A stretch of 64,000 nucleotides of DNA from Christensenella sp. UBA5489. Its GTDB lineage: Bacteria > Bacillota > Clostridia > Christensenellales > UBA1242. The notes below the pieces were generated by a model. It had not been told where the DNA came from. It made no database searches and was given only the letters and a program-made list of their open reading frames with translations. A program made the position numbers and the translations under genes. The stretch spans positions 27,386 through 91,385 of the forward strand of contig DIPL01000014.1 in assembly GCA_002424095.1 (NCBI GenBank). Direction: 5' to 3'. Shown here piece by piece: positions 7,611 through 56,589 of the stretch; the stretch's first letter is position 1; each line of letters starts with the position of its first letter.

Positions 7611-10112
7611 ATGAGTAATCTTAATTCTTTTTCGGACAATGTTGAAAAAGTATTGAAAAAAGCAAGTGAAATTGCATTAAAATTCGGAAATTTGCAAGTC
7701 GGAACTGAGCATATTTTGTATGGCTTAGTAAGTGTAAGAGACTGTGCATCAAGTCAAATCCTTGCAGAATATGGCGTTAGTCAAGAAAGTTTGGAAATAA
7801 TTTTCGGCGAAAATGCTGATTTTATTGAAATTGGAAATCAAGTCGAACTAACACCACGTGTAAAAGAAATGATAAAAGTCGCTCAAAAAATTGCAATACA
7901 ACTCGGACATTCTTTTATTGGAACGGAGCATATCTTTTATGCAATATTAAACAGCGTTAACAGTTTTGCTGTCAGACTTTTAACAGGATATTTTCACGTT
8001 AATATAAACGACTTAAAAACACGAGTACTTGTTGTTCTTCAAGGCGAAAACAAAGAAATTGTGCAAAACAATCCAGCACAAAATTCAAATAGCACATTAC
8101 CTGAAAAACTTCTTGCAATGGGAACAGACATCACCTTAAAGGCGAAAGAAGGAAAAATTGACCCTATAATCGGACGTGAAAGCGAAATAGAAAGAGTTAT
8201 AGAAATTCTTTGCCGTAAAACGAAAAATAATCCTGTTTTAATTGGTGAAGCAGGCGTCGGAAAAACCGCAGTCGTTGAAGGACTTGCACTTGCAATTGTA
8301 ACAGGAAATGTTCCAGAAATCTTATCAGATAAAATCATATTTTCTCTTGAAATTGGTGGACTTATGGCGGGAACTAAATATCGTGGCAGTATGGAAGAAC
8401 GTCTTAAAAATGCAATTGAGATGATAATTAAGCAAAAAAATATAATTGTTTTTATAGATGAAATTCATACACTTGCACAGGCAGGTTCTGATAAAGGAGA
8501 AACAAGTCCAGCGGATATGCTAAAACCCTATCTTGCACGTGGAGAACTTCAAACAATTGGTGCAACAACAACTGATGAATATAGAAAATTCGTTGAAAAA
8601 GATAAGGCGTTAGAACGTCGTTTTCAGCCGATTATGGTTAATCCGCCATCCGTCGAGCAAACAATTGAAATTTTAAAAGGCTTGAAAGATAGTTATGAAG
8701 CATTTCATAAAATTAAAATAACAGATGAAGCAATCGATGCCGCCGCACATCTTTCCGACCGCTATATTATGGACCGTAACTTGCCCGATAAAGCTATTGA
8801 TTTAATTGATGAAGCATCGAGTAAGGCGAAAGTTAATTTTAATTTAAAACCAGCGGCAATCCGTGATAAAGAAGAAAAAATCAAGCAACTTTCAGCGAAT
8901 AGAGATGAAGCCAGCATCCAAAGAAATTATGAGAAAGCGGCAAAGCTTCAATCTCAAATAATCAACCTTGAAAACGAACTTGATGTTTTGACAGCCGAGT
9001 TTAATAAAAAAGCCAAAAAATCAACAGGAGCAATAGGAGCGAATGAAATTGCCGAAGTCGTTTCAAAATGGACAGGCATACCTATTACAAAAATCACCGA
9101 AACCGAAAAAGAAAAACTTATGCATTTAGAAGAAATCATCCATCGACGTGTTATAGGACAAGATGAGGCGGTGGAGGCTGTTGCACGTGCAATCCGCCGT
9201 TCACGTGTTGGTTTGCATGACACACGCAAGCCAATCGGCTCATTTCTCTTTATGGGGCAGACCGGAGTCGGGAAAACTGAACTTTCCAAAGCAATTGCTG
9301 AGGCAATGTTTGATGATGAAAACAATATAATCCGTCTTGATATGAGCGAATATATGGAAGGGCATTCTGTTTCTAAACTTATTGGTGCGCCACCGGGATA
9401 TGTTGGTTATGATGAAGGCGGACAACTTACAGAACAAGTGCGTCGAAAGCCATATTCTGTTATTCTTTTTGATGAAATTGAAAAAGCACATCCTGAAATT
9501 TTTAATGTATTACTTCAAATTTTGGATGACGGTCGTTTAACGGACAGTCAAGGGCGAGTTGTAAGTTTTAGAAACTCAATTATAATAATGACAAGCAATG
9601 TCGGTGCTTCGACATTAAAAACAAAAGAACTTGGCTTTAATGATACTAATGTCGATGATAATTTTGAAAAAACAAAACAAATATATTTCGACGCATTAAA
9701 GAAAAAGTTTAAGCCAGAATTTATCAACCGAATTGATGTAATTTGCGTATTTAAACCACTTGGAACAGATGAACTTACGAAAATTGCCAAAATTTTAATT
9801 AGCAATATAAATAAACGATTGAAAAAACAAAATTTGGAATTAAAAATAACCGAAGAGGCATTAAATCTAGTTGTTAAAAAGGGTTGCATAAATCCAGAGT
9901 TTGGTGCAAGACCACTTAAAAGATTTATTCAGCAAGAAATTGAAGATACAATTGCTGAAAAGATTTTGATTGGAGAACTCAGTAAGGCAGGAGCAATAAT
10001 AATTGACTGTGAAAATGATAAACTTGTTTTTGAAAGCGAGCTAAAAAATGAAAATTCAAAATCAAATAAGACAAAAGAAACAGGTGAAACATCAGATAAA
10101 AATAGATTTTAA
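7611..10112 (+). CDS. clpC: ATP-dependent Clp protease ATP-binding subunit ClpC
   Basis: Two Clp_N repeats, AAA-1 Walker A (GEAGVGKTAVVEG), a UVR-like linker (RNYEKAAKLQSQI), AAA-2 Walker A (GQTGVGKTELSKA) and GARPLKRFIQ. Start placed at ATG 7611, 8 nt after GGAG. Confidence 0.92.
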   Translation: MSNLNSFSDNVEKVLKKASEIALKFGNLQVGTEHILYGLVSVRDCASSQILAEYGVSQESLEIIFGENADFIEIGNQVELTPRVKEMIKVAQKIAIQLGHSFIGTEHIFYAILNSVNSFAVRLLTGYFHVNINDLKTRVLVVLQGENKEIVQNNPAQNSNSTLPEKLLAMGTDITLKAKEGKIDPIIGRESEIERVIEILCRKTKNNPVLIGEAGVGKTAVVEGLALAIVTGNVPEILSDKIIFSLEIGGLMAGTKYRGSMEERLKNAIEMIIKQKNIIVFIDEIHTLAQAGSDKGETSPADMLKPYLARGELQTIGATTTDEYRKFVEKDKALERRFQPIMVNPPSVEQTIEILKGLKDSYEAFHKIKITDEAIDAAAHLSDRYIMDRNLPDKAIDLIDEASSKAKVNFNLKPAAIRDKEEKIKQLSANRDEASIQRNYEKAAKLQSQIINLENELDVLTAEFNKKAKKSTGAIGANEIAEVVSKWTGIPITKITETEKEKLMHLEEIIHRRVIGQDEAVEAVARAIRRSRVGLHDTRKPIGSFLFMGQTGVGKTELSKAIAEAMFDDENNIIRLDMSEYMEGHSVSKLIGAPPGYVGYDEGGQLTEQVRRKPYSVILFDEIEKAHPEIFNVLLQILDDGRLTDSQGRVVSFRNSIIIMTSNVGASTLKTKELGFNDTNVDDNFEKTKQIYFDALKKKFKPEFINRIDVICVFKPLGTDELTKIAKILISNINKRLKKQNLELKITEEALNLVVKKGCINPEFGARPLKRFIQQEIEDTIAEKILIGELSKAGAIIIDCENDKLVFESELKNENSKSNKTKETGETSDKNRF

Positions 10113-16649: not shown

Positions 16650-16801
16650 TAAATCTCCATTTAAATTTATATTTCATAATTTTTTCTCCGCTGAGTTGGT
16701 GCGAAAATTTAAAAAATTTGTTTAAAACAAATAAAAATATCTTTCGCAACATTATATTATATGACAACATATAATTATATAGTTAAAAGGATAGAAAATT
16801 T

Positions 16802-17200
16802 ATGAAAAAAAGTTTTTATGAGTTCAGTAATCAAAAATTCGAAAAAAACAAAAACACTGAAAAGCAAGATTTTAAAAATTTCCGTCCAACACACGATGCA
16901 CAAAATTCACAAAGTTTTGAAAAACGAAATCATGAAAACTCACATTCTGAGAACTTTCGTCAATCAGAGCAGGATAGTGATTTTGAATCAAAAAAAAGTG
17001 AAATTGAAGAAACGATAAATAAATATCAAGATATGTCGCAAAGCGAACTTCTTTCTAATTTATTTTCCGAAGTAAACAAACAAAAACAGCAGGGCACATT
17101 TGATATTGAAAAAATTGAAAACGCAATTTCAGGACTTGGTGCGTATTTAACAACCGAACAACAAAATAATATGAGGGAAATGTTAAAAAAATTCAAATGA
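16802..17200 (+). CDS. Hypothetical charged protein, translationally coupled to the S8 peptidase
   Basis: AAGGA SD. The stop overlaps the next start (ATGA at 17197..17200). Q/E/K/S-rich with no recognisable domain. Confidence 0.5.
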   Translation: MKKSFYEFSNQKFEKNKNTEKQDFKNFRPTHDAQNSQSFEKRNHENSHSENFRQSEQDSDFESKKSEIEETINKYQDMSQSELLSNLFSEVNKQKQQGTFDIEKIENAISGLGAYLTTEQQNNMREMLKKFK

Positions 17201-18354
17201 AAAATAAAATAGACAAAAATCTAGTTCAAGTATTATCGGTAATTTCATCTTTTCAGGAAGATTTGGAATGTATTATTTATGTCGGCGACTTCGACATTGC
17301 ATTAAAAAATTTAAGTAAAGACAAAATAAAAATTCAAGCGACATTTCCATTTATAAATGCCTTGTCGCTCCAACTCAACCGAAAAAAACTAAACAAACTA
17401 TTAACATATAATTTTGTGAAATATGTTTCAAGTCAGACGCACGTTTTTGCACTGATGAACGTTGCCAAAAAAATCTTAAAAATTGAAGAAAATGCAACTG
17501 GAAAAGACATTAGTGTCGCTTATATAGATACGGGAGTAAGTCCTCATCTAGACTTTGTTCTCGGCGAAAATAGAATTATAAAATTTATAGATTTAATAAA
17601 TAACAGAGTCTTTGCCTATGACGATAACGGACACGGAACATTTGTTTGCGGAGTTGGTTCAGGCAATGGCTTAATGTCGAACAAAAAATATGCTGGAATT
17701 GCACCAAAATCTAATATTGTAGCCATAAAAGCATTAAATGAACAGGGCGAAGCAAATTCGATTAAAATTCTAGAAGCAATGCAATGGATTTATGATAACA
17801 GCGATAAATACGGTATAAAAGTAGTTTGTATGAGTTTCGGAAGTGAACCTCTCGGTGCTAACGACCCCATTATGAAAGGTGCGGAGGAACTTTGGAAAAA
17901 TGGAATCACAGTTGTGGCAGCGGCAGGTAACAGCGGACCAGAATATGAAACAATAAAAAGCCCGGGAGTCAGTCCAAAAATTATTACAGTAGGTGGATTT
18001 AACGATAATCGAATTAATGATTATACCTATAACGAAAAGTTTTTTGAAATTGCAGAATTTTCTTCACGAGGACCAGCGTTAAAACGTTTTAAGCCTGATG
18101 TTATTGCTCCTTCTGTGAATATTGTTTCTTGTGGAACGAACGAACCTTACACTTCACTCAGCGGAACAAGTGTTGCTGCTCCAATGATTGCAGGAGTTTG
18201 TGCACTTTCTTATGAAAAGAATTATAACATTAAGCCCGATGTTTTAAAAAAATTAATAACTGGTTGTTCAAAAGCAATTACCTATAACAATAATGTTGAA
18301 GGCTTTGGAATTCCTGATGTCGAACAATTACTGAATAACAAAGCCGTTTTTTAA
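17197..18354 (+). CDS. S8 (subtilisin-family) serine peptidase, no signal peptide
   Basis: Catalytic Asp (VAYIDTGV), His (DDNGHGTFVCG), oxyanion Asn (AAAGNSGP) and Ser (LSGTSVAAPMIAG). Confidence 0.88.
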   Translation: MKNKIDKNLVQVLSVISSFQEDLECIIYVGDFDIALKNLSKDKIKIQATFPFINALSLQLNRKKLNKLLTYNFVKYVSSQTHVFALMNVAKKILKIEENATGKDISVAYIDTGVSPHLDFVLGENRIIKFIDLINNRVFAYDDNGHGTFVCGVGSGNGLMSNKKYAGIAPKSNIVAIKALNEQGEANSIKILEAMQWIYDNSDKYGIKVVCMSFGSEPLGANDPIMKGAEELWKNGITVVAAAGNSGPEYETIKSPGVSPKIITVGGFNDNRINDYTYNEKFFEIAEFSSRGPALKRFKPDVIAPSVNIVSCGTNEPYTSLSGTSVAAPMIAGVCALSYEKNYNIKPDVLKKLITGCSKAITYNNNVEGFGIPDVEQLLNNKAVF

Positions 18355-27168: not shown

Positions 27169-27275
27169 TTTATTTCTAGAAGTTTTTCTTTTTAAATTTT
27201 TTGCTACGTAACCATTGCCTTAGATTGTAAACATTCAAAATGAAATTTCATATTATGCAATGGAGGCAATTATTT

Positions 27276-28136
27276 TTGAATTATTATATTGATTTAACAG
27301 ATAAAAGAAATATTTACATTTTTAAAATGTTACAAAATATGGGACATAATGTCCAAAGTTTTTTATTTAAAAATCAGAAAAAAGATATGGCTGAAAATAA
27401 AATACAGATGGAAAACCCAATGATAAAATTTCCTAAAAGGCAAGCAAGTTTAAAATATGAAAACATAGTCATTTTTTCGCCTGCAAAAAAATTTACCGAA
27501 AACGAAATTGATGAGTTGCCAAAAAATTCACTGATTTTTGGCGGCAGCCTAATAAAAAACAATTTAGCAAAACTTGAAAGCAGGAATATAAAATATATAA
27601 ATTTTCTCGATAATGATGATTTTGTAGTTAGAAATGCAAAACTTACCGCAGAAGGGATTCTGGCACTTTTGATAAGTAACACTGAAAAATCTATTTTTGA
27701 AAACAAAATTTTGATTTTAGGTAGCGGTCGTGTCGGAATGGCAACCGCAGCATTATTGAACAAACTTGATTTAAACACCGATATTGCAATTTTTCATAAT
27801 GATAAGTTTGCAGTGGCGAGTTTTTATGGCAAAAATGTTGTTTTTGAAAATCAATTATTCGAACGAATAGGGCAGTATGATGTCATAATAAACACAGTTC
27901 CTTTCAAAATTTTAAAAGACGAGTTTTTATCAAAAATTAATAATAACGCAATAATTCTTGAAGTTGCTTCGACAAATTGCCTAGAAAAAGACCTTTTAAA
28001 AGATTATAAATTTAAATATATTCCTTCACCTGCATTGCCGCAGCGATACAGCGCAGAAAGTGCAGCAGGAATAATGTTGGAGGTAATTTTAAAATTTATA
28101 AAACAACAAGGGCAAGAAAAAACATTAGAAAAATAA
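27276..28136 (+). CDS. dpaA: Dipicolinate synthase subunit A
   Basis: NAD-binding motif ILILGSGRVGMATAALL, a DpaA-like N-terminus (YIDLTDKRNIYIFKML) and dpaB directly downstream. I prefer the TTG start at 27276, 9 nt after GGAGG, over the track ATG at 27240. Confidence 0.8.
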   Translation: MNYYIDLTDKRNIYIFKMLQNMGHNVQSFLFKNQKKDMAENKIQMENPMIKFPKRQASLKYENIVIFSPAKKFTENEIDELPKNSLIFGGSLIKNNLAKLESRNIKYINFLDNDDFVVRNAKLTAEGILALLISNTEKSIFENKILILGSGRVGMATAALLNKLDLNTDIAIFHNDKFAVASFYGKNVVFENQLFERIGQYDVIINTVPFKILKDEFLSKINNNAIILEVASTNCLEKDLLKDYKFKYIPSPALPQRYSAESAAGIMLEVILKFIKQQGQEKTLEK

Positions 28137-34388: not shown

Positions 34389-36230
34389 TTATTCAATTAA
34401 ATTTAGGGTATAATGTTTAAACCAAAGGTCGAATTGATAAAGATAAGCGATTAATTGTGGTCTTGTCATTAATTGTCCGAACCAAGGTTTTTGCTCAATG
34501 GAATCTTCAAATAAATTTTGTAATGCCTTTTTATCAAAAATATAATTCAAAATTGAATTTTTGTTTTTAAGGCTTGCTTTTAATAATTTTTTGACACTAT
34601 TTAAATATTTAGGATTATGCGTTTTTGGATAAGGATTTTTCTTTCGGTTAAGGATTTCATCAGGAACAATATCTTTCACCGCCTCTCTTAAAAGTCCTTT
34701 TTCTCTGTTTTTATCGAATTTATATTTCCAAGGCACATTATAGAGATATTCTATAAGTCTATGGTCGGCAAATGGCACACGAACTTCCAGTCCTGCGCCT
34801 GTTGTCATACGGTCGTTTCTATCAAGTAATGTTTGCATAAACCAAAGCAAATTTAGATAAGTCAGTTGTTTATGTCGTTTGTCTTGTTTGCTTTCCATGC
34901 CAGTCAATGGCGTTTCTTTTAATGTTTGTATATATCTTTCTTTAACGTAATTTATCAAATTCAACTTATCTCTAAATTTTTGATTTAATAAAGAATTGCG
35001 TTCATCTAAATTTCTTATCCACGGAAAAAATTCGTTTTGTTGTTCTTTATAAAACCACGGATAGCCGCCAAAAATCTCATCTGAACACTCTCCCGATAAG
35101 GCAACCGTAAACCTTTGTTTTACTTGCTTACTGAACCAATAAAGAGAAGAGTCAACATCTACCATACCTGGAAAATCTTTCAAAACCAGTGCATCGTAAA
35201 GTGTGTCGACGAGTTGTTCGTTATTGATAGTTATATAATTATGTTTTAATTGAAACCTTTTTATAAGGAGTTTAATAAAATCATTATCTTGCGAGACTTG
35301 AAAATCATTTCCAGAAAAATATTTGTAATTATCTAAATAATCTATACTGAAAGTTTCTAAATCAAGCTTAAATTTGCGGGCAATCAATGTAATTGCTGTT
35401 GAGTCTAGTCCGCCTGACAAAAAAGAGCAAAGTGGAACATCGGAAGTGAGTTGACGACGAATACTGTCTTCAAGTAAATGTCTTGTTTTTTTTGCAGTTT
35501 CATCAAAATTTTCACTATGAGCAATCGCTGGCACATTCCAATATCTCTCAATAGTTAATTTTTCTGAAAAATTGTGGCTTTTAGCATTTAAATCAAGTGG
35601 TTTATATTTTAAATAATGTCCCGCTTTAAGTTCATAAACATTAGGATATATTCCACAACCGGGTGTGTGCGATGGTCCAAGTCCTAAAATTTCACGCAAG
35701 CCGTCAGATGTAATCGAGTTTATTTTAAAATAACTTAAAATTGATTTAATTTCTGAGCATACCATAAAATCGCCATTATTTTTGTTTTTTAAGTAATAAT
35801 AAAAAGGTTTAACGCCTACATGGTCTCGGCATCCGAACAATTCTTTTGTTTTTTCATTCCAAATAGCAAAAGAAAAAATACCGTTTAATTTCTCCACACA
35901 TTTTTCTTTATATTCAACATATAACTTAATCAAAACTTCCGTATCTGAATAACCAATGAAATCATAACCTTTTTTAATCAAATCATTTCTTAATTCTTCC
36001 ATATTATATAATTCGCCGTTATAAATCAACACAAATTCTTTAAAGCAAAAAGGCTGTTTGCCGTTTTCTTTATCGACAACGACAAGTCTTTTATGCCCAA
36101 AAAAAACATTTTCGCTTTCATTAAGATAAAAGCCTTGTTCATCTGAACCACGATGATTCACCTTTGCCAAAGATTTATTTGCTTCCGCAATATTTATTTT
36201 TGGCGAAACAATTCCAACAAAACCACTCAT
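34389..36230 (-). CDS. asnB: Asparagine synthase (AsnB family) with Ser in place of the N-terminal nucleophile Cys
   Basis: The Ntn-glutaminase domain motifs are otherwise preserved (HRGSDE, KRLVVVD, YNGELYN, SDTEV) and the synthetase PP-loop is intact (FLSGGLDSTAI). The protein begins MSGFVGIV (ATG AGT GGT). Confidence 0.85.
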   Translation of the reverse strand: MSGFVGIVSPKINIAEANKSLAKVNHRGSDEQGFYLNESENVFFGHKRLVVVDKENGKQPFCFKEFVLIYNGELYNMEELRNDLIKKGYDFIGYSDTEVLIKLYVEYKEKCVEKLNGIFSFAIWNEKTKELFGCRDHVGVKPFYYYLKNKNNGDFMVCSEIKSILSYFKINSITSDGLREILGLGPSHTPGCGIYPNVYELKAGHYLKYKPLDLNAKSHNFSEKLTIERYWNVPAIAHSENFDETAKKTRHLLEDSIRRQLTSDVPLCSFLSGGLDSTAITLIARKFKLDLETFSIDYLDNYKYFSGNDFQVSQDNDFIKLLIKRFQLKHNYITINNEQLVDTLYDALVLKDFPGMVDVDSSLYWFSKQVKQRFTVALSGECSDEIFGGYPWFYKEQQNEFFPWIRNLDERNSLLNQKFRDKLNLINYVKERYIQTLKETPLTGMESKQDKRHKQLTYLNLLWFMQTLLDRNDRMTTGAGLEVRVPFADHRLIEYLYNVPWKYKFDKNREKGLLREAVKDIVPDEILNRKKNPYPKTHNPKYLNSVKKLLKASLKNKNSILNYIFDKKALQNLFEDSIEQKPWFGQLMTRPQLIAYLYQFDLWFKHYTLNLIE

Positions 36231-38297: not shown

Positions 38298-38825
38298 ATG
38301 AATACAATAATGCAAGCAGATAATCTTTCTGAATTAAAAGACGCAATGCATATTATTTTTGTTGGGGAAATTGAAATTGATATTGAATCAGGCGAATATG
38401 AGCGAGTTATAGGCAAATATTATGGCGGAAAATATCAGCAAGATGGCTTAACCTTTCAAATCTATATGGATAGAAATCAAAAACGTGAATCATTAGGGCT
38501 TTTTGTTGATGCAAAAAATAAAGATGAAATTAATAAATCTTTAAAACCGTTGATAGATTTTATTTCTGAAATTATGGGCAGAACATTTCTAGGAACTGCT
38601 ATTGATAAAGAACAAAAAACACTTGCGATTGAGTGGATAAATAATAAAGATTACGCAAAGTATTCATTATTATACTATCACGAACTTTTTGAAAGAGATA
38701 AGATAAGCCAATATGAATATAACGAAGATTATGGTGATTCATATTTATCAAAATTAAATCTAAAATTAAAAGAAATAATACAATCTCATTCACATAATAC
38801 GAATGAAAAAGAAATTGAAAGATAA
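38298..38825 (+). CDS. Hypothetical cytoplasmic protein (orphan operon, gene 1)
   Basis: 175-aa ORF with no TM segment, signal peptide or recognisable motif. Confidence 0.5.
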   Translation: MNTIMQADNLSELKDAMHIIFVGEIEIDIESGEYERVIGKYYGGKYQQDGLTFQIYMDRNQKRESLGLFVDAKNKDEINKSLKPLIDFISEIMGRTFLGTAIDKEQKTLAIEWINNKDYAKYSLLYYHELFERDKISQYEYNEDYGDSYLSKLNLKLKEIIQSHSHNTNEKEIER

Positions 38826-38837
38826 TAGGAGGGAAGA

Positions 38838-39500
38838 ATGATTAAAGATATTAATCAAAATACATTTATTGAACTATTGAACCAAAATTTCGGAAATGAA
38901 TTCAAGGTAAAAGAGGCTGATATTAATTTTAATTATTTACCTTATAGAGAAAAGGTTTTAGAAAACCCTGACGAAATTCAAAAGTTTAAATTTTTCAAAT
39001 CATTTTTACAACCTAATGAAGCCGAAAAAAATACAGAATTTTTTCAGAATTTAGAATATTCGTGTAAAATAAAAATTAAAGGTTCAATAGAAAAAAATGA
39101 TTTTTGTCTTTCATATCGTGATGGTTATGGAAAGGGTTTTTTAGAAGTCGAACTTTCTGATGATAAGCAAATACCGGATAAAGAACTTATGCTAAAATTA
39201 AAAAATATTTTCAATGACTTTATGCAACAGGAATATTTTTGCGAGTTTAAAACTCAATCAATCGGATTTTTAGATTTAAAGCAAACATCTGCCATAGCAT
39301 ATATAGATGACAGTGGATCAGCACGTAATTTTTTTAATAATTTAACAAGTAGATTAGAATATACAAACTCTTTGGAATTTTTTAATATAGGACAAGAATA
39401 TGTAATTGAGATTTGCAAAAATCATAGATATAAAATGCCTATTGGAGAAAAGTTGTCATCAGAAGCGAGTTCTCCGATTTTAACGGATATGCAAAGATAA
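38838..39500 (+). CDS. Hypothetical cytoplasmic protein (orphan operon, gene 2)
   Basis: 220-aa ORF with a strong SD (AGGAGGGAAGA ATG), 12 nt after gene 1. No recognisable motif. Confidence 0.55.
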   Translation: MIKDINQNTFIELLNQNFGNEFKVKEADINFNYLPYREKVLENPDEIQKFKFFKSFLQPNEAEKNTEFFQNLEYSCKIKIKGSIEKNDFCLSYRDGYGKGFLEVELSDDKQIPDKELMLKLKNIFNDFMQQEYFCEFKTQSIGFLDLKQTSAIAYIDDSGSARNFFNNLTSRLEYTNSLEFFNIGQEYVIEICKNHRYKMPIGEKLSSEASSPILTDMQR

Positions 39501-39533
39501 TATTTTCGTTAACACATAGAATTAAATTCAATC

Positions 39534-39562
39534 AAAAAGCAATAGTTTTTCTATTGCTTTTT
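39534..39562. terminator. Bidirectional intrinsic terminator between the orphan operon and the Cys-rich gene
   Basis: aaaaagcaatag-ttttt-ctattgcttttt: 12-bp stem flanked by A and T runs. Confidence 0.75.
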
Positions 39563-39643
39563 TTATGCTCTAATTTCAAATAAATCTATACTTTTTATTT
39601 GAGTTTATAATTTCAAATTTTAATAGTTATTGATGTTTTTTAT

Positions 39644-39865
39644 TTAACAACGGTTGCATAATGTCATTCCAATTGCAAGCCAAAAGATAGGACTGCAATT
39701 AAAACCAAAATTTCCGCAACTTTGAGGGATGCAACAGTTCCCTATATGTCGCTGAAATCCGCAGGTTCCGCAACATTGCGAACCACAACAACACGGGCAA
39801 GTTGGCGGGACATAACATCCGCAACCCGAGTTGCAAAATCTTCCTAATGTACTTCTACAAAACAT
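39644..39865 (-). CDS. Small cysteine-rich protein (17 Cys in 73 aa) with a hydrophobic C-terminal segment
   Basis: Strong SD (AGGAGG, 9 nt before the ATG) and its own terminator. CC/CCC clusters (CPCCCGSQCCGTCG, GNCCIPQSCG), followed by IFWLAIGMTL and a C-terminal CNRC. Confidence 0.65.
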   Translation of the reverse strand: MFCRSTLGRFCNSGCGCYVPPTCPCCCGSQCCGTCGFQRHIGNCCIPQSCGNFGFNCSPIFWLAIGMTLCNRC

Positions 39866-40028
39866 TTGTATCTTATCCTCCTATTTTATTTTATGTAAAT
39901 TAAATTAAATTGTGAAATCACTTAATTTAATCAAATAGAAACTGAAAACAATAACTTAAATAATTGAAATTAATATTAAAAAGTGTTATTATATAATAAT
40001 ATTTTAAATATTAAAGAAAGGAATTGTT

Positions 40029-40586
40029 TTGAAATTATATAAAAAATGCCCACGCTGTAATCAAAAAGCGTATTTAAACGATGTAAAGTGTGATGAATGT
40101 GGTTTGGTTTTTTCTAGACTTAATTTTGCTTCAAATCTTGAAGCAAAAAAAGCAATTGTCAACGGAGAAAGAGAAAAGGTTATTACAACAACACAATTTC
40201 CAAGTGATTTAAAACGTTGGCTTGCCGGTGTCCTTTGTGCTTTTGGAGGATTTTTAGGTTTGCATAATTTTTATGTTGGAAGATATTTTAAAGGTGCTTT
40301 CTGTTTCATTGTATCTTTTATAACCATTATTTTGATTTTTACTTTGGAATCGACCTCAGTCTTATTTGAAACGCTATTGTGGCTTTTTCCTGCGGCTGCT
40401 GTGTTTGCATTTTGGTTTCATGATTTGTTTTTAATTGCAATTAACAAATATAAGGTTCCGATTGCACTGTTAATGCCTGAGAAAAAAGAGAAAGAAATAA
40501 TAATCGTTGAAAAGAAAGAAAAAGCGGGAAAAAACAAAGAAGCAAAGAGAAAAAAGAACGAGTCTAACCCAATAGAAGAGCAATAA
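40029..40586 (+). CDS. Zinc-ribbon plus TM2-domain membrane protein
   Basis: N-terminal CPRCNQ...CDECG zinc ribbon, TM2-type motif WLAGVLCAFGGFLGLHNFYVGRYFKG, and a K/E-rich tail. TTG start after AAAGGA. Confidence 0.7.
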   Translation: MKLYKKCPRCNQKAYLNDVKCDECGLVFSRLNFASNLEAKKAIVNGEREKVITTTQFPSDLKRWLAGVLCAFGGFLGLHNFYVGRYFKGAFCFIVSFITIILIFTLESTSVLFETLLWLFPAAAVFAFWFHDLFLIAINKYKVPIALLMPEKKEKEIIIVEKKEKAGKNKEAKRKKNESNPIEEQ

Positions 40587-40595
40587 AAGGAAAAA

Positions 40596-41759
40596 ATGAA
40601 TAAAACAAAAAAAACTGTGGTTATGGGAATGAGTGGAGGGGTTGATTCCAGTGTTGCTGCCTATCTTTTAAAGCAACAAGGCTTTAATGTAATTGGCTTG
40701 TTTATGATAAATTGGCAAGACACCAGTGGCTCATCTCATTGTAGCGCCGAAGAAGACTTTGAAGACGTGAAAAGAGTATGTAACGTTTTGCAAATTCCTT
40801 ATTACAGTGTGAATTATGAAAAAGAATATAGAGAACGAGTTTTTTCTTATTTTTTAGAGCAATATAAAAAAGGAAGAACACCAAATCCCGATGTTTTATG
40901 TAATAAGGAAATAAAATTCGGACCTTTTTTAGAGCAAGCAGAAAAACTTGGCGCAACCAACATTGCAACTGGACATTATGCAAAAAAGATTGAAATAAAT
41001 GGGAAATATCATCTTGTGAAGGCCGCAGATTTAAATAAAGACCAAAGTTATTTTTTACACCAATTAAATCAAAAACAACTTGAAAAAATTTTGTTTCCAC
41101 TAGCAGATATAACTAAACCAGAAGTACGAAAAATTGCCACCGAACTTGGCTTTTCGACAGCAAAAAAGAAAGATTCAACAGGAATATGTTTCATTGGCGA
41201 GCGAAATTTTAAAAATTTTTTAAAAGACTATTTTCCTATTCAAAAAGGCGATATAATCACGCAAAGTGGAGAAGTTGTTGGACGCCACGATGGTCTTATG
41301 TTTTATACCATAGGGCAAAGGCGTGGTCTTGGAATTGGTGGAATTAAAGGCGGTGCGGGTGGCAGTTGGTTTGTTCTTGGAAAAGATTTAAAAAGTAATA
41401 AATTAATTGTATCGCAAGGCGAAACCCATGCACTTTACTCAAATTCTTGCGAATGTGAGAATTTTAATTGGATACCTGAAAGACCAAAATTGACAACTTT
41501 CGACTGTTCTGCAAAATTTAGATATCGTCAACCAGACCAGCGAGTAACGGTTAATTTAACAACACCAGCAATAGAACAAAATTCTAACACAACGCAAAAT
41601 AAAAAAACAAAGTTTAAAATAGGAGAAGTTTTTATCAATTTTCATAAACCTCAACGTGCAATAACGCCGGGACAGTATGCCGTTCTTTATGATGAAAATG
41701 GATTATGTCTTGGTGGCGGAGAAATTATGGAAACAATAGAAACACAACAACTAATGTGA
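40596..41759 (+). CDS. mnmA: tRNA 2-thiouridine(34) synthase
   Basis: PP-loop VVMGMSGGVDSSVAAYLL, NPDVLCNKEIKF, DQSYFL and the STGICFIGE catalytic Cys context. Confidence 0.93.
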   Translation: MNKTKKTVVMGMSGGVDSSVAAYLLKQQGFNVIGLFMINWQDTSGSSHCSAEEDFEDVKRVCNVLQIPYYSVNYEKEYRERVFSYFLEQYKKGRTPNPDVLCNKEIKFGPFLEQAEKLGATNIATGHYAKKIEINGKYHLVKAADLNKDQSYFLHQLNQKQLEKILFPLADITKPEVRKIATELGFSTAKKKDSTGICFIGERNFKNFLKDYFPIQKGDIITQSGEVVGRHDGLMFYTIGQRRGLGIGGIKGGAGGSWFVLGKDLKSNKLIVSQGETHALYSNSCECENFNWIPERPKLTTFDCSAKFRYRQPDQRVTVNLTTPAIEQNSNTTQNKKTKFKIGEVFINFHKPQRAITPGQYAVLYDENGLCLGGGEIMETIETQQLM

Positions 41760-41787
41760 AAATTTAAGCAGTATTCTTGAAAAATGT

Positions 41788-41816
41788 TTGACAGCGTAAA
41801 TGTTTTAATCTATAAT
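41788..41816 (+). promoter_or_regulatory. Perfect-consensus sigma-A promoter upstream of secD
   Basis: TTGACA (41788..41793), 17-nt spacer, TATAAT (41811..41816). Confidence 0.6.
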
Positions 41817-41900
41817 AAAAAAGTTGTTTAAAAAAATTTTTAATTGAATAAAATAAACATAAAAAAATTTAACATATAAAACTTGGAGTTTGATTTAATA

Positions 41901-43226
41901 ATGAATAAAAAACTTGCAAAAAGAAATTTCATAAGTATAGCAATTCTTATAATAATATTAATCACTATGTGTTTCGCAAACTTTCCTATTCCCGCAACGA
42001 CACAAAGATTTGTAGGATTCGCAAACGCAATAACAACTGATATTGACCTTTCAGGCGGTTTTGTGGCACAGTACGAAATGAAATTTCCCGACGAAATAGT
42101 TGACAGAAATCAAAAAGTCAAAGATACCGCAGATTTTATAAATAATAAGTTAATTGAATACGGTTACAAAAGCGCAAGTGTTTCAGTCGCAGGAGGATTG
42201 ACAGAAGACACGACCGCAAATCAATTATATATTGAAGTTCCTAATCTAATGTATGCTAAGGAAGTGCTTAATGCGGTTGTCGCTGATGGAAATTTATATA
42301 TAAGGACCACGGAAACCACCGAAGTTGGGGAAAATGACCTTTCAGGTGAAGATATTTCAAACGCTTTTTCAACTTTCACGCAACTCACAGCCAGTGAGTA
42401 TAAATGGGGAACAACAATTGAACTTTCTGATGAAGGTGCAACAAAAATAAAAAAATTAACGGAAAGTGGAAGTGGTACGATTTATATTTATATCGGCGAT
42501 GAAATTTTTTCCAACATTTCCTTTTCAAACCAAATAACAGACAATTCTCTTTATGTCTACGGTTCTTCTCCGAATAAAGACTCAGCAAACATATATGCAT
42601 TTACACTTCTTATGGCAAAACAAGAAGTAAGTTTTGAACTAATTGGAGACCAAATTTCAACCATTTCGCCACTTCTCGGCGAAAATACGTTATTATTTTT
42701 ACTGATTGCCGTAATCTTGATTATAGCGCTATTTATTTTTGTAATGGTGTTGATTTTTGGTGATTTTGGATATCTTGCAGGTTTATCTCTTGCAATATAT
42801 TTTGCTTTAATTATGTTCTTTATGCAAGCCGTACCGATTTTTGTGCTTTCAATCAGCGGTATAATCGGTGCTTTAATTGGACTTCTTTTGTTATTTAGTA
42901 GTTTTTATATAATTTTTGATAATATAAAAAGCGGATATGCCGAAGGTAAAAAAATTCCATTATCGACGAAATCAGGTTTTAGTAAATCTATAATGACTAT
43001 TGTTGATTTAAATGTTATAGCAATCATTTTTGCAATTATTATATATTTTGTTGGAGCCCCGCTAACACATAGTTTTGCGTTTGCTCTCGGTTTAGGTGCA
43101 CTTTTAAATATGCCTGTTGCATTGCTTACAACTAAATCATTTACTAAATGGTATTTAAGCTTTAACAGTACAAAGCCAAATAAACTGCGTATGAAAAGGG
43201 AGGCAACAATAAATGAACTTGACTAA
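41901..43226 (+). CDS. secD: Protein translocase subunit SecD
   Basis: N-terminal TM segment, periplasmic-type domain with DLSGGF, and six C-terminal TM helices. Followed by an overlapping secF. Start uncertain: ATG 41901 or TTG 41883. Confidence 0.8.
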   Translation: MNKKLAKRNFISIAILIIILITMCFANFPIPATTQRFVGFANAITTDIDLSGGFVAQYEMKFPDEIVDRNQKVKDTADFINNKLIEYGYKSASVSVAGGLTEDTTANQLYIEVPNLMYAKEVLNAVVADGNLYIRTTETTEVGENDLSGEDISNAFSTFTQLTASEYKWGTTIELSDEGATKIKKLTESGSGTIYIYIGDEIFSNISFSNQITDNSLYVYGSSPNKDSANIYAFTLLMAKQEVSFELIGDQISTISPLLGENTLLFLLIAVILIIALFIFVMVLIFGDFGYLAGLSLAIYFALIMFFMQAVPIFVLSISGIIGALIGLLLLFSSFYIIFDNIKSGYAEGKKIPLSTKSGFSKSIMTIVDLNVIAIIFAIIIYFVGAPLTHSFAFALGLGALLNMPVALLTTKSFTKWYLSFNSTKPNKLRMKREATINELD

Positions 43227-50898: not shown

Positions 50899-51837
50899 TT
50901 ATTGAACATTTAATAAATAATTATTAACCGAAACCGAAGCAATGGCACCGTCTGCGCAGGCTGTTATAATTTGTCTGAGTGTTTTATGTCTGACATCACC
51001 TGCGGCATAAACTCCTGCAATATTGGTGTTCATATTTTCATCGGTAATTATATATCCCATTTCATCAAGAGATAAAATACCTTTAAGTGGCTCTGTGTCA
51101 GGTTTTCTTCCGATTGCTATAAAGAGTCCGTCAACATCTAAATCTCTTGTATTTTTAGTCAATATATCTTCAATTAAAATACTTTCAAGTTTGTCGGTGC
51201 CATCAAGCTTTTTAACAACAGAGTTTAAAATTATTTCAACTTTGGAATTTGATTTTTTGGCAAGAGTTGTTACCTTATTTAAAGATGCTTCATCGCATCT
51301 AAATTTACTATGCTTGTGAATAATATAAATCTTTTTGGCGAGGTCGTAAAGATATAGAGCATCTTCCATAGAAGTATTTCCACCGCCAACAACAGCCACC
51401 GTTTTATTTTTGAAGAAATTACCATCACAAGTTGCACAATAGCTGATACCCTTGCCGACAAACTTTTGTTCATTTTCGACTTCTAATTGTTTACTATATG
51501 CTCCTAAACAAAGTAGAATAGTTTTTGATTCAAATGTTCCATTATTGGTTTTTATTCTTTTAACTTTTCCAATTATGTCATATTCAAGTGCATCTGCGAA
51601 TATGATTTGAAGCCCTAATTTTGTTGCCTGTTCAAAAAGTTTAACTGCTAAATCTGCACCGTTAATTCTTTCAAAACCAGGATAATTTTCAATGTTCTTT
51701 GTTACTGCAACTTGACCGCCTGGCATCATTCTTTCAATCATTAAGATATTTTTTTTTGCTCTTAATGCGTAAATAGCCGCTGTAAGTCCTGCGGGACCAG
51801 CCCCTATTATAATTAAATCGTACATCTTTCCTCTCAT
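50899..51837 (-). CDS. trxB: Thioredoxin-disulfide reductase
   Basis: FAD motif YDLIIIGAGPAGLTAAIYA, redox-active CATCDG, NADPH motif VAVVGGGNTSMEDA. The start is either 51837 or the ATG at 51825. Confidence 0.93.
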   Translation of the reverse strand: MRGKMYDLIIIGAGPAGLTAAIYALRAKKNILMIERMMPGGQVAVTKNIENYPGFERINGADLAVKLFEQATKLGLQIIFADALEYDIIGKVKRIKTNNGTFESKTILLCLGAYSKQLEVENEQKFVGKGISYCATCDGNFFKNKTVAVVGGGNTSMEDALYLYDLAKKIYIIHKHSKFRCDEASLNKVTTLAKKSNSKVEIILNSVVKKLDGTDKLESILIEDILTKNTRDLDVDGLFIAIGRKPDTEPLKGILSLDEMGYIITDENMNTNIAGVYAAGDVRHKTLRQIITACADGAIASVSVNNYLLNVQ

Positions 51838-51903
51838 TTTTTTTAATTTATGATTTGATTTTTTTATAGTTTACACTATTTATATCAATTTGCAAAATGT
51901 TTT

Positions 51904-53607: not shown

Positions 53608-56589
53608 TTAAAAAACGGCAATATACGCAGTCAAAGATTTATTATTTTCATATTTATTTTCATTAACAATAGAATTTGACTTACCAAAAGAGCCTGCATT
53701 TTTTAATCTTTGTTCATATTTTATTTTATTTATATAATTAAGTTTTTCATTTAATTTTTTAATTTTTCGATGCGAATTACTGCGATTGCTATAAATTTTA
53801 TTTATCTTACTATAATCAGCTTTACTTTTTATTCTTTGATTATCTATGTCTGTTTGATTATTTTTATCCTCATCAACATTTCTTTCATTAATGATTTCCT
53901 TATCATTTTTTACTGAATCAGTATTGTCGTCTTTTTGACTTACATCAATTTCTTCGTTTTCTACTGTTTGTGGCATTGTGCGACTTTTGAAAGGTTTACT
54001 AGCCATTTCACAGGAATTAAAAGTTAAATTCAACTTATTTTGTAGTCTACGTCCCTTTTCAAATTTAGGCAAAGAAAGTAGGTTTTCTTTTATTTTATCA
54101 TCATTGTTTTTTAACTCATTGTTTGCTTTATTTCTAGAATAGTCATTAAAAGTCAAGGGCGTCGAAGGAAATTTATTTTCCGGTATTATGTTTTTTTCAG
54201 CATTTGTAGAATCTTTCAATTCTGTATTGGTTTTATTTCTAGTATTATTTTCATTGTTTATTATTTTGGAATTCGTTGAATTTGAGTTTTGATTTATTGA
54301 ATTATTGTTGTTATTTACGTTATTGTTTAAATTTTTACTATTATTTAAGTTATTATTATTGTTTATAGTCCTATCATTTCGTGAGTTAATTACATTTCTA
54401 TCACTTAAATTTTTTTCATTTTTTAATGTTCCATCCTCATTATTATTAATATTATTATTTACATTATTTTCAATTTCATTTTTATTATTTAAATCTCGTC
54501 GATTAATATTGTTTTGGTCATAAGGATTAAAATTTTCATTATTATTAAAATCATCATTTACATTATTATTTACATTGTCTTTAATATTATCTAAATCTTT
54601 TTCAAAGTTTGGCAAAGTTTTATTATCTTGTCTATTTAGATTATTAAAATTATCTTTAACACTGTCTTGATTGTTTAAGTCTTGATTGAAATCATTTTGA
54701 TTATTTTGGTTACGATCTTGATTGAAATTTTGATTGAAATTTTGATTGAATTCTTGATTGTAGTTTTGTCCCAAACTTTGATCGAATTCTTGATTATAAT
54801 TTTGATATTGATTATTCAAATATTCTCGTAGTAAAATACAATCAGGTCCAAAGCAAAATCCATAAAGATAACAATCATTGCCGTCAATACAAGGCTCTCC
54901 GTATGTGCGATAATTATAAAATAATGCAAATTGTGGGTCTTGGTTTGGTATATTTTGCGTATCCTGTAAGTCAGGCGAGTTAGGCTCTATATCAGGTTCT
55001 ATATTGGAATTTTTATCATTTATATTGTTATTTAAGGTATTGTTGTTCTTATTATTTTCATCCATAATGTTTGTATCGTTTGTATTAGCATCATCAGGTT
55101 TAGCATCAACATCCGTTACATCATTTTGATTTATTCTATTTAGATGATATTTTTTGTTGATATTGTTTATTTTGTTGGCATAATTGCCGTAACTATAATT
55201 ATAAGGGTTAGGGCAGGAAGGGCAATATGAATTATTTAACACATTATAATTCCCATCAATACATGATTCAATTTGTAATAAACTGTTTAGAATAGACTGT
55301 AAATTGCAATTTCTGTTATCCATACATCCCAAAAGTCTAATATATTTTGAATTTAAGGCATCTGTATTTTCGCCATTTTTTGTTCTTAATGATTTAATTG
55401 ATGCCAATTCATTATTTAATTCTGCTTTGTTCAAATTAATTTTATTGAAACTTGTATTTATATTATTTAATAAATCGTTGATTGCTTTTATTTGATTTTC
55501 ATCAAGTTTTATATCACCGCCTTTGATTTTATCCGCTAATTCTTTAATATATGCAATATTTTCATTTATTGATTTTATTAGATAATTACAATTTTTGTTG
55601 CATTCAACACATGAGTTGGAATTATTTTTTGTGTTTAATAATTTATTACCGTTTGTATTTGTCGCTGTTTTATTAATTAAATAATCATTGTTTGTTCTAA
55701 AATCATTATTATTTGGATTTGAATTTTTTGAATTGTTTAAGTTATTTAAGTTATTAGAGTTATAATCATAATTGTTGAAATTGTTATAATATCTATTATT
55801 ATCTTTTAAATTATTAATTCGATTTCTATAAAGACGATTGTTGTACTGTTTATAGTTTCTAACGCTACTATTTTCATCATTATTATTTTTAGTTACATTT
55901 TCGTTTCTATCACTGAGAACATTATTATTGATATCTCTATTTTCTCTATTTATATTCCTATCTATATTTTCAGCTTCGTCATTTTCATTTCTATATATGT
56001 TTTCATTATAATCCGTTTCATTATCATTATAGAAATTGCCTGCTTCTCGATATGTGTCAATATTTGAGCCCCAATATCTATTTCCCCAACCATTGCCATA
56101 ACCGCCGACGCCGTTGCCAAAATTACCGCCTAAATTATTACCGTAATTTCCGCCGAAATTGTTGCCATAGTTTCCACCATAATTCCCGCCATAATTGTTA
56201 TTGCCATAACCTCCAAAATTACCACCAAAGTTATTTCCACCAAAGCCATTATTAATACCGTTAACACCACCATATACACCATTTCCGCCGAATCCATTAT
56301 TGAAGCCACGGTTATAAAAATTGCCATAGGTATCGGTATTGCGATTAAAATTTGCAACATCAAATCTATAACCGCCATTTAATGCAACTTTCACTAAATT
56401 ATTATCACCGTTAAAACCATTAAATGTTATATCCTCGTTTTCAACATTATTTACTTTTTTTAATTCAGAAGACAACTTGTCCATCCTGCTATGAAGATTT
56501 GAACTTATAGCACCGTTTGAATTTGAATCACAGCCTGTAAAAACAAAGCACATCATAACTGCTATAAATCCGATAAAAAATTTTTTCAT
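53608..56589 (-). CDS. 993-aa asparagine-dominated low-complexity lipoprotein with G/Y/N repeats and two Cys-containing islands
   Basis: AAGGAGA SD. Lipoprotein signal (AVMMCFVFTGCDS). GGNYGGNYGNNFGGNYGNNLGGNFGNG repeats, NQNFNQNF repeats, and the islands CVECNKNCNY...CPSCPNPY and GEPCIDGNDCYLYGFCFGPDC. Confidence 0.7.
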   Translation of the reverse strand: MKKFFIGFIAVMMCFVFTGCDSNSNGAISSNLHSRMDKLSSELKKVNNVENEDITFNGFNGDNNLVKVALNGGYRFDVANFNRNTDTYGNFYNRGFNNGFGGNGVYGGVNGINNGFGGNNFGGNFGGYGNNNYGGNYGGNYGNNFGGNYGNNLGGNFGNGVGGYGNGWGNRYWGSNIDTYREAGNFYNDNETDYNENIYRNENDEAENIDRNINRENRDINNNVLSDRNENVTKNNNDENSSVRNYKQYNNRLYRNRINNLKDNNRYYNNFNNYDYNSNNLNNLNNSKNSNPNNNDFRTNNDYLINKTATNTNGNKLLNTKNNSNSCVECNKNCNYLIKSINENIAYIKELADKIKGGDIKLDENQIKAINDLLNNINTSFNKINLNKAELNNELASIKSLRTKNGENTDALNSKYIRLLGCMDNRNCNLQSILNSLLQIESCIDGNYNVLNNSYCPSCPNPYNYSYGNYANKINNINKKYHLNRINQNDVTDVDAKPDDANTNDTNIMDENNKNNNTLNNNINDKNSNIEPDIEPNSPDLQDTQNIPNQDPQFALFYNYRTYGEPCIDGNDCYLYGFCFGPDCILLREYLNNQYQNYNQEFDQSLGQNYNQEFNQNFNQNFNQDRNQNNQNDFNQDLNNQDSVKDNFNNLNRQDNKTLPNFEKDLDNIKDNVNNNVNDDFNNNENFNPYDQNNINRRDLNNKNEIENNVNNNINNNEDGTLKNEKNLSDRNVINSRNDRTINNNNNLNNSKNLNNNVNNNNNSINQNSNSTNSKIINNENNTRNKTNTELKDSTNAEKNIIPENKFPSTPLTFNDYSRNKANNELKNNDDKIKENLLSLPKFEKGRRLQNKLNLTFNSCEMASKPFKSRTMPQTVENEEIDVSQKDDNTDSVKNDKEIINERNVDEDKNNQTDIDNQRIKSKADYSKINKIYSNRSNSHRKIKKLNEKLNYINKIKYEQRLKNAGSFGKSNSIVNENKYENNKSLTAYIAVF
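54718..54813 (-). repeat. Eight consecutive 12-nt (4-codon) imperfect tandem units inside the N-rich gene
   Basis: On the + strand each unit begins ttg (ttgattgaaatt x2, ttgattgaattc, ttgattgtagtt, ...). They encode NFNQ/EFNQ-type repeats. Confidence 0.7.

Follow-up and report, generated by a model that had tools for sequence, protein, structure and literature searches.

Within a 64,000-nucleotide stretch of the Christensenella sp. UBA5489 genome (assembly GCA_002424095.1, contig DIPL01000014.1, positions 27,386 to 91,385), hereafter the window, a small gene encodes the extremely cysteine-rich protein that is the subject of this analysis. Its coding sequence occupies positions 39644..39865 of the window on the minus strand, running from an ATG (39865-39863) to a TAA (39646-39644), and this open reading frame (ORF) translates into 73 amino acids (aa), 17 of which (23%) are cysteine. 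Cysteine makes up 1.1% of residues in the long ORFs of the window, corresponding to an approximately 20-fold enrichment in the 73-aa protein, where it occurs in CxC, CC and CxxxC spacings together with histidine and glycine and in the complete absence of acidic residues. A Shine-Dalgarno sequence (SD), AGGAGG, is readable at 39877..39882 on the same strand, 11 nucleotides (nt) 5' of the ATG, and a GGAGG or GGGGG lies 5-11 nt before the start codon in all eight members of the family described below. Divergently oriented to the gene is one for a zinc-ribbon and TM2 protein (PF05154, 30.7 bits; cut-off 27.9), followed in the same direction by mnmA.

A bidirectional intrinsic terminator hairpin lies 82 nt past the stop codon (39534..39562, 12-bp stem AAAAAGCAATAG/CTATTGCTTTTT, with flanking A/T runs that provide T runs on either strand), and an equivalent hairpin was found at the related locus on metagenome contig L007. 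The protein sequence, the strong SD and the identity of the divergent neighbour were all as given in a preliminary description of this DNA. That description had also credited the gene with its own terminator; the hairpin is present, but it faces the convergent gene for a 220-aa protein (p220) as well and is therefore common to both. The GC-richer patch that it remarked upon was likewise borne out, with 37-41% GC over the ORF against 19-28% in the flanking DNA. The excess resides at codon position 2 (63.5%, compared with 32% at position 1 and 34% at position 3; background genes of the window, 41/30/23%), so that the patch reflects coding composition (Cys TGN, Gly GGN, Pro CCN) rather than an RNA-structure signal. 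Rfam searches of positions 39400-40100 returned nothing at the gathering score or at E<=10, the window as a whole holding three tRNAs only, and a folding z-score of about -2 on both strands is unremarkable, being explained by the self-complementarity of TGC and GCA.

A cysteine-rich family recovered by synteny

Relatives of the gene were recovered through conserved gene order. The neighbouring p220 located the first of them, as a single relative (P0011, 83% identity) on the JGI/ENA contigs L007 and L008, and L007 carries a 73-aa ORF at the equivalent position with 90% amino acid identity to the window protein. Descending a ladder of TM2-protein homologues, fetching their contigs and seeking a small ORF divergently upstream of the TM2 gene brought the family to eight distinct members of 54-122 aa and 12-23% cysteine, from related metagenome-assembled genomes (MAGs) and metagenome contigs. 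These include L010 (9541-9861; 106 aa, 14 Cys), L013 (7123-7461; 112 aa, 13 Cys), L016 (101 aa, 22 Cys), L021 (122 aa, 22 Cys), L022 (69 aa, 11 Cys) and L024 (54 aa, 7 Cys). All relatives with a TM2 protein sharing 53% identity or more with that of the window carried a small cysteine-rich ORF, which was absent from L018, L019 and L025 (52%, 45% and 41%), where the corresponding gap is 40-100 bp. Divergent placement against the TM2 gene, with mnmA beyond it, is kept in 8/8 loci.

The family proteins are rich in Gly, Ser, Pro and Asn, lack a signal peptide and are all net positive; acidic residues are missing from five members and few in the others (one in L016, 5-6 in L010 and L013). Closer members share the N-terminal motif M(F)C[N/R]...C..CG[C/G]Y[V/T]PP, and a C-terminal hydrophobic motif, C-x-P-[ILMF]-[IVMF]-[WCF]-h-x-h-G, is present in all. 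Between them lies a middle region that varies in length and contains in-frame repeats such as SSCGNWG; the homologues show tandem-repeat periods of 18, 21, 33, 45 and 57 nt, all multiples of three, of which L016 has a 33-nt unit present 2.9 times that encodes SCGSSCGNWGG, and L021 has units of 18, 21, 45 and 57 nt. In L010 and L013, an additional polar, Lys/Asn-rich tail of approximately 25-30 aa extends past the hydrophobic motif and cysteine density is lower, indicating that the C-terminus of the family is modular.

Only two cysteine columns are invariant across the alignment of the eight members. Conservation of cysteine positions, singled out beforehand as the trait to look for among homologues, holds for the close orthologue on L007, in which 17/17 are retained, but the wider family keeps cysteine content and the two terminal motifs rather than positions. 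As far as these sequences reveal, the family is fast-evolving and clade-restricted, and beyond the genus level it is the content and not the position of cysteine that is preserved.

Pairwise comparisons demonstrate that the protein sequence is constrained. Between the window and L007, the ORF differs at 21 nt (12 in third codon positions), such that 10 codons have changed silently (four of these between TGC and TGT) and seven residues have been replaced, without any indel. The resulting ratio of nonsynonymous to synonymous substitution rates (dN/dS) is 0.16, and the flanking intergenic DNA retains 61% and 79% identity with 17-19 gap columns. Further comparisons gave a dN/dS of 0.48 for L010 against L013 and 0.25 for L016 against L021. 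Eight lineages retain the SD, the ATG and the reading frame, and the large changes in length are all multiples of three. Over 11 kb, the MAG GCA_028692295.1 (L002) diverges from the window by approximately 2%, and the cysteine-rich ORF contains one change only, which is silent. The gene is under purifying selection, and we regard its status as a real protein-coding gene as virtually certain.

At the sequence level, the family matches no Pfam or NCBIfam model, and gene callers have largely missed it. An identical protein is annotated in three NCBI MAGs labelled 'Clostridia bacterium' (GCA_028704815.1, GCA_028692295.1 and GCA_028681115.1), whereas a Logan contig identical to the window (L004) has no gene call at the ORF (9616-9837). 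On L007 (4952-5173), the JGI caller placed a 49-aa ORF in the wrong frame over the cysteine-rich gene. The exact 73-aa protein is missing from a 15-billion-protein collection in spite of its annotation in the three NCBI MAGs.

Sequence searches alone would have upheld the earlier designation of the protein as an orphan, which the syntenic homologues overturn. A word-indexed protein search yielded no candidate, and exhaustive phmmer against 1.84 billion representatives gave no match at E<=0.001. The phmmer null is only weakly informative because the exact protein is missing from the collection, such ORFs are rarely called and the bias filter of HMMER penalizes this composition. Two genome-contig scans, using the cysteine-rich protein and threonyl-tRNA synthetase (ThrRS), produced pattern matches but no relative confirmed by tblastn, in keeping with a lineage that is apparently not among the GTDB representatives searched and with ThrRS patterns that fell in poorly conserved stretches. 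A metagenome scan with a two-sequence alignment returned only the L007 contig, and tblastn against plasmids and phages gave no match. For all eight members, Pfam and NCBIfam gave no match even at E<=10, and PHROGs and PDB sequence searches produced noise only.

Promoter architecture and sporulation context

When the upstream regions of the eight genes were anchored on the SD, a single architecture was evident (8/8), comprising T[A/C]AC, 16 nt (15 in L024), CATA[A/C][A/T]AT[A/G], 4-6 nt, (A/G)GGAGG, 5-11 nt and ATG. In the window, the putative -10 element CATAAAATA (39887..39895, minus strand) is of the type recognized by mother-cell sigma factors and belongs to a CATAnnnT[A/G] pattern that is invariant in 8/8 members. 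The -35 element CACA (39911..39914, minus strand) includes the 'AC' (39913-39912) typical of sigma-K, 16 nt from CATA. The spacing of [A/C]AC is fixed (16 nt in seven members, 15 nt in L024), and the spacer sequences themselves are unrelated between lineages.

The window -10 element agrees with those of mapped sigma-K and sigma-E promoters of Clostridioides difficile (CATATAAT, CATATTAT and similar), in which a -35 'AC' denotes sigma-K and 'ATA' denotes sigma-E (PMC3789822). Mapped sigma-K promoters in that species include those of cdeC/CD1067 (GTAACA-N16-CATAGTAT), sleC (TTAACA-N17-CATATCTT) and CD1898 (AAACA-N15-CATATATT) (Saujet et al., Table S7). We compared nine sequences from this study (the eight family members and dpaA) with the Table S7 promoters (25 sigma-K and 47 sigma-E). 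The expression [AC]AC-N15-18-[CA]ATA was found in 18/25 sigma-K promoters, 5/47 sigma-E promoters and 9/9 of our sequences, compared with 4/25, 26/47 and 1/9, respectively, for ATA-N15-18-[CA]ATA. All nine also scored higher with a sigma-K than with a sigma-E position weight matrix (PWM), although this fixed-gap comparison discriminates weakly because spacers vary, and the expression test is the clearer of the two.

The inclusion of dpaA provides a calibration within the same genome, as dpaAB is sigma-K-dependent in both C. difficile and Bacillus subtilis (PMC3789822). Directly before dpaA-dpaB in the window lies AACA(27230)-N15-CATATTATG-N4-GGAGG-N9-TTG(27276). A strict version of the motif occurs five times in 128 kb (the window, two strands) against 3.7 expected from shuffles, and two of the five, those of the cysteine-rich gene and dpaA, abut an SD and start codon. 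A relaxed version is found within 150 nt upstream of only 5/57 window ORFs, the same two genes among them. From the Table S7 distance of 6-8 nt between the -10 element and the transcription start site, transcription would begin at the first base of the SD and leave a leader of approximately 17 nt. Taken on its motifs, the cysteine-rich gene is probably under sigma-K-type control.

The window also places the gene in a sporulating host. Genes for a STAS protein, a SpoIIAB-like kinase and a sigma factor follow the order spoIIAA-AB-sigF, and there are further genes for SpoVAC, SpoVAD, SpoVAEb, YunB and FtsK/SpoIIIE, for DpaB (above curated NCBIfam cut-offs) and for a divergent DpaA adjoining asd-dapA, along with a weak match to YtxC. 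This gene set identifies the organism as an endospore former.

Several observations emerged alongside the promoter survey. Simple ORF calling begins dpaA at ATG 27240, within the region 27230-27278; the in-frame TTG at 27276, which follows the promoter and GGAGG, fits better, and the first 20 residues of the long ORF fall outside the DpaA model alignment, so the called start is probably mis-assigned. A thioredoxin-reductase-like flavoprotein (Pyr_redox_2) encoded at 50899-51837 on the minus strand has a sigma-K-like promoter within 51825-51875, AAC-N16-CATAAATT-N8-GAGAGG-N4-ATG (the second ATG, MYDLIIIGAGPAG), so that the genome of the hyper-cysteine protein may also encode a mother-cell redox enzyme. 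At 16745-16802, AACA-N15-CATATAAT precedes a 132-aa ORF (16802-17200) by 26 nt, and this ORF is followed by a gene for a subtilisin-like protease (17197-18354) with partial similarity to Csp germination proteases; together these genes may constitute a mother-cell sporulation operon.

A proposed spore-envelope role and its alternatives

The interpretation that we favour, with a probability of roughly 60%, is that this is a monocistronic, sigma-K-dependent gene whose signal-less product, synthesized in the mother cell, is added to the forespore and serves there as a disulfide-crosslinking matrix in the coat or exosporium. Transcription would take place in the mother cell late in sporulation, by sigma-K RNA polymerase acting at the promoter directly before the SD. 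Without a signal peptide, the protein would reach the forespore surface from the cytoplasm of the mother cell, its site of synthesis, as other coat proteins do, and its many cysteines could there link molecules to one another through disulfides and so cement the coat or exosporium. The N-terminal motif and the short C-terminal hydrophobic motif may act as docking or self-association elements, with the variable, repeat-bearing middle serving as a crosslinking spacer. A small coat or crust crosslinker in a sporeformer had been proposed in the preliminary description, and the proposal gains support from the sporulation genes and from the sigma-K-type promoter shared by 8/8 members and dpaA; the sigma-K dependence, timing, spore-surface location and disulfide crosslinking of the protein are inferred. 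Variable length, evolution by repeats and conservation of cysteine density rather than position fit a matrix or cement better than they fit a lattice tile or a defined metal site.

In functional terms, the family fits an established kind of protein, the cysteine-rich, sigma-K-dependent proteins of the spore envelope. The closest comparison is with CdeM of C. difficile, a protein of 161 aa with 8.7% cysteine that is monocistronic, sigma-K-driven, repeat-bearing, species-restricted and flanked on either side by housekeeping genes; CdeM and CdeC contain short cysteine-containing repeats (CNCCNCCRK, NPC), have no recognized domains and are proposed to crosslink the outermost spore layer through disulfides (PMC6101409). 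High cysteine content, a monocistronic gene, a sigma-K promoter (a predicted one in the present case), a narrow taxonomic range and unrelated housekeeping neighbours are shared with the gene described here. Compared with CdeM and CdeC (161 and 405 aa, ~9% cysteine), to which no sequence similarity was detected, the window protein is two to five times smaller, at 73 aa, and 2.5-fold richer in cysteine, at 23%, and the family has a conserved C-terminal hydrophobic motif and a spore localization that is predicted. Diverse and sequence-unrelated cysteine-rich proteins have been argued to be typical of spore envelopes and to be expected in other sporeformers (PMC7333573).

CsxA of Clostridium sporogenes/botulinum and CotY/CotZ/ExsY of Bacillus belong to the same broad class of cysteine-rich mother-cell proteins and self-assemble into lattices; they build disulfide-stabilized spore envelopes. 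Those proteins are folded and form hexagonal two-dimensional crystals, whereas the present family, for which no homology to them was found, is of low complexity and variable length, with an AlphaFold predicted local distance difference test (pLDDT) score of 50; these features make a matrix or cement more likely than a lattice tile. The YjcZ family (TIGR01732) and other tiny sporulation proteins of Bacillota are also very small, often unannotated, Gly/Cys-containing and equipped with a hydrophobic segment. Unlike these, the eight members gave no NCBIfam or Pfam match at E<=10, and their hydrophobic segment is much shorter and C-terminal.

Several points weigh against the spore-envelope interpretation. 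No homology to any known coat protein was found in the Pfam and NCBIfam searches, and the AlphaFold model, built from a single sequence, is uninformative. The sigK gene is not among the genes of the window but lies outside it. Assignment to sigma-K is a matter of motif matching in AT-rich DNA, the PWM margin for the window gene is small (sigma-K 7.2, sigma-E 6.9) and the same region matches a sigma-A promoter at 10/12 positions (TTCACA-17-TAAAAT), but the invariant C of CATA and the lack of the 'G' of TTG in 8/8 members are as expected for a mother-cell sigma factor and not for sigma-A. The predicted leader is unusually short, a geometry that dpaA shares, and AC and CATA lie 16 nt apart, the lower limit of the spacings in C. 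difficile (16-18 nt). Lastly, in the reducing cytoplasm of strict anaerobes, the cysteines could bind metal instead.

That last possibility corresponds to a distinct proposal, a small metallothionein-like or Fe-S/Zn-cluster protein whose reduced thiols sequester metal, possibly for loading the spore. Its cysteine content of 23%, the CxC, CC and CxxxC spacings, the histidine and glycine and the absence of acidic residues would all be suitable, the organism is an anaerobe, and a metallothionein-like binder was among the initial suggestions. The suggestion loses ground on the family data, since cysteine positions are unconserved and the centre varies by repeat expansion over 54-122 aa, which does not fit a defined cluster and argues for a matrix or crosslinker. 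Moreover, no metallothionein (SmtA/BmtA type) or other model in Pfam or NCBIfam was matched, no metal-sensing regulator or transporter adjoins the gene among the neighbours inspected, and the promoter is of a sporulation rather than a metal-responsive type; we consider metal binding improbable. Partnership with the zinc-ribbon/TM2 protein, in which the small protein would be membrane-associated through a C-terminal hydrophobic anchor and have no connection to spore structure, draws on the divergent arrangement that is strictly conserved in 8/8 loci and on the conserved C-terminal motif. The TM2-mnmA pair, however, persists without the small gene in the distant relatives L018, L019 and L025, so that the linkage looks positional; the hydrophobic stretch of 10-13 residues is too short for a membrane span, and the TM2 gene has, on its side of the intergenic DNA, a separate sigma-A-like promoter (TTGAAA-17-TATTAT with TG). 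This, too, is an unlikely explanation.

Very little probability attaches to a ribosomally synthesized and post-translationally modified peptide (RiPP) or bacteriocin precursor, of sactipeptide/ranthipeptide/SCIFF-like or lanthipeptide-like type, with its maturase encoded elsewhere. A small cysteine-rich ORF is what such a precursor would look like, and the conserved N-terminus and variable remainder could correspond to leader and core. Neither the Pfam annotations within 10 kb on either side nor the scanned window ORFs include a radical S-adenosylmethionine (radical-SAM), lanthipeptide or other maturase, and the same range around the gene in the window, L001-L016 and L021 holds no radical-SAM/SPASM, LanB/C/M, YcaO, peptidase-ABC exporter or immunity gene. 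The earlier argument against a classical RiPP from the lack of an adjacent maturase therefore extends to every locus with the gene, and the only locus that does have a radical-SAM/SPASM gene, L019, is without the ORF. No match to a known precursor family, which would have spoken against the coat proposal, was obtained with Pfam or the RiPP-precursor models of NCBIfam, including SCIFF and other cysteine-rich precursors, and the neighbouring AsnB is an asparagine synthase by cut-off. A core of 50-110 aa in low-complexity repeats would also be unlike known RiPPs, and the promoter is sigma-K-type. As to a chance ORF, or a structured non-coding RNA underlying the GC-rich patch, the GC-rich island in AT-rich DNA, the modest folding z-score and a frame left uncalled by the JGI and Logan callers might suggest either, but they are effectively refuted by the comparative data: dN/dS values of 0.16-0.48 and an SD, ATG and frame kept in eight lineages, in addition to a GC excess at codon position 2 only and the lack of any Rfam match.

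The chemical and mechanical resistance of the spore envelope owes much to disulfide-crosslinked cysteine-rich proteins. The examples known so far derive from a few cultured species of Bacillus and Clostridium and are mutually unrelated in sequence. The spore-envelope interpretation would extend this principle to an uncultured lineage of Clostridia, with members that are far smaller and contain up to 23% cysteine. The family also illustrates how such genes escape detection, through a wrong-frame call in one instance and no calls elsewhere, with homologues recovered by synteny alone, and how a promoter of the sporulation sigma-factor type, with dpaA of the same genome as calibration, can assign a developmental role to a micro-gene that resists annotation. 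The case is testable and would overturn nothing established.

A bolder and decidedly more tentative proposal takes its cue from the ultra-high-sulfur keratin-associated proteins of mammalian hair, which are small, contain 20-35% cysteine in Gly/Ser-rich short repeats, evolve rapidly in repeat number and fill the space between structural elements as a disulfide-cured matrix. The present family is like them in composition and design (compare SSCGNWGSSCGSGSSCG in L021); as keratin-associated proteins are eukaryotic, any resemblance is convergent, and no phmmer match was obtained at E<=0.001. It is conceivable that the family represents an unrecognized class of bacterial 'ultra-high-sulfur matrix proteins', that is, repeat-evolving proteins of 50-120 aa that act as a disulfide-cured spore-envelope cement in uncultured anaerobic Clostridia and bear a C-terminal hydrophobic peg for targeting. 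Were this so, similar hidden genes may be widespread in the genomes of sporeformers, their products largely invisible to annotation, protein databases and the bias filters of hidden Markov model searches.

Neighbouring genes and further features of the window

Two genes on the far side of the shared terminator, encoding a 175-aa protein (p175) and p220, were considered as co-regulated coat genes and rejected, as their promoter is sigma-A-type (TTGACT..TATAAT). The 175-aa gene (38298-38825), situated between thrS and the p220 gene, is missing from L007, where thrS directly adjoins the p220 homologue; it represents a lineage-specific insertion and has a weak match to an Arm-DNA-binding model (18.7 bits, below the cut-off). 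The AsnB neighbour was likewise rejected as a candidate lasso-peptide cyclase, passing the asparagine synthase equivalog cut-off and not that of the cyclase. This asparagine synthase (34389-36230, minus strand; TIGR01536, 455 bits) starts MSGFVG, with serine in place of the catalytic N-terminal cysteine of class-II glutamine amidotransferases, so that the enzyme may depend on ammonia or be altered in some other way, or its start may lie elsewhere.

Further afield, a 993-aa ORF without any Pfam match (53608-56589, minus strand) lies between the spoIIA-sigF and spoVA operons. On the mnmA side of the locus, comparison of the window with GCA_028692295.1 revealed 6.7-12% divergence across mnmA, the mnmA-secD spacer and secD (40596-43226), against no more than ~2% in the rest of the 11 kb, and by this divergence profile the mnmA-secD stretch is a sharply bounded recombination patch.

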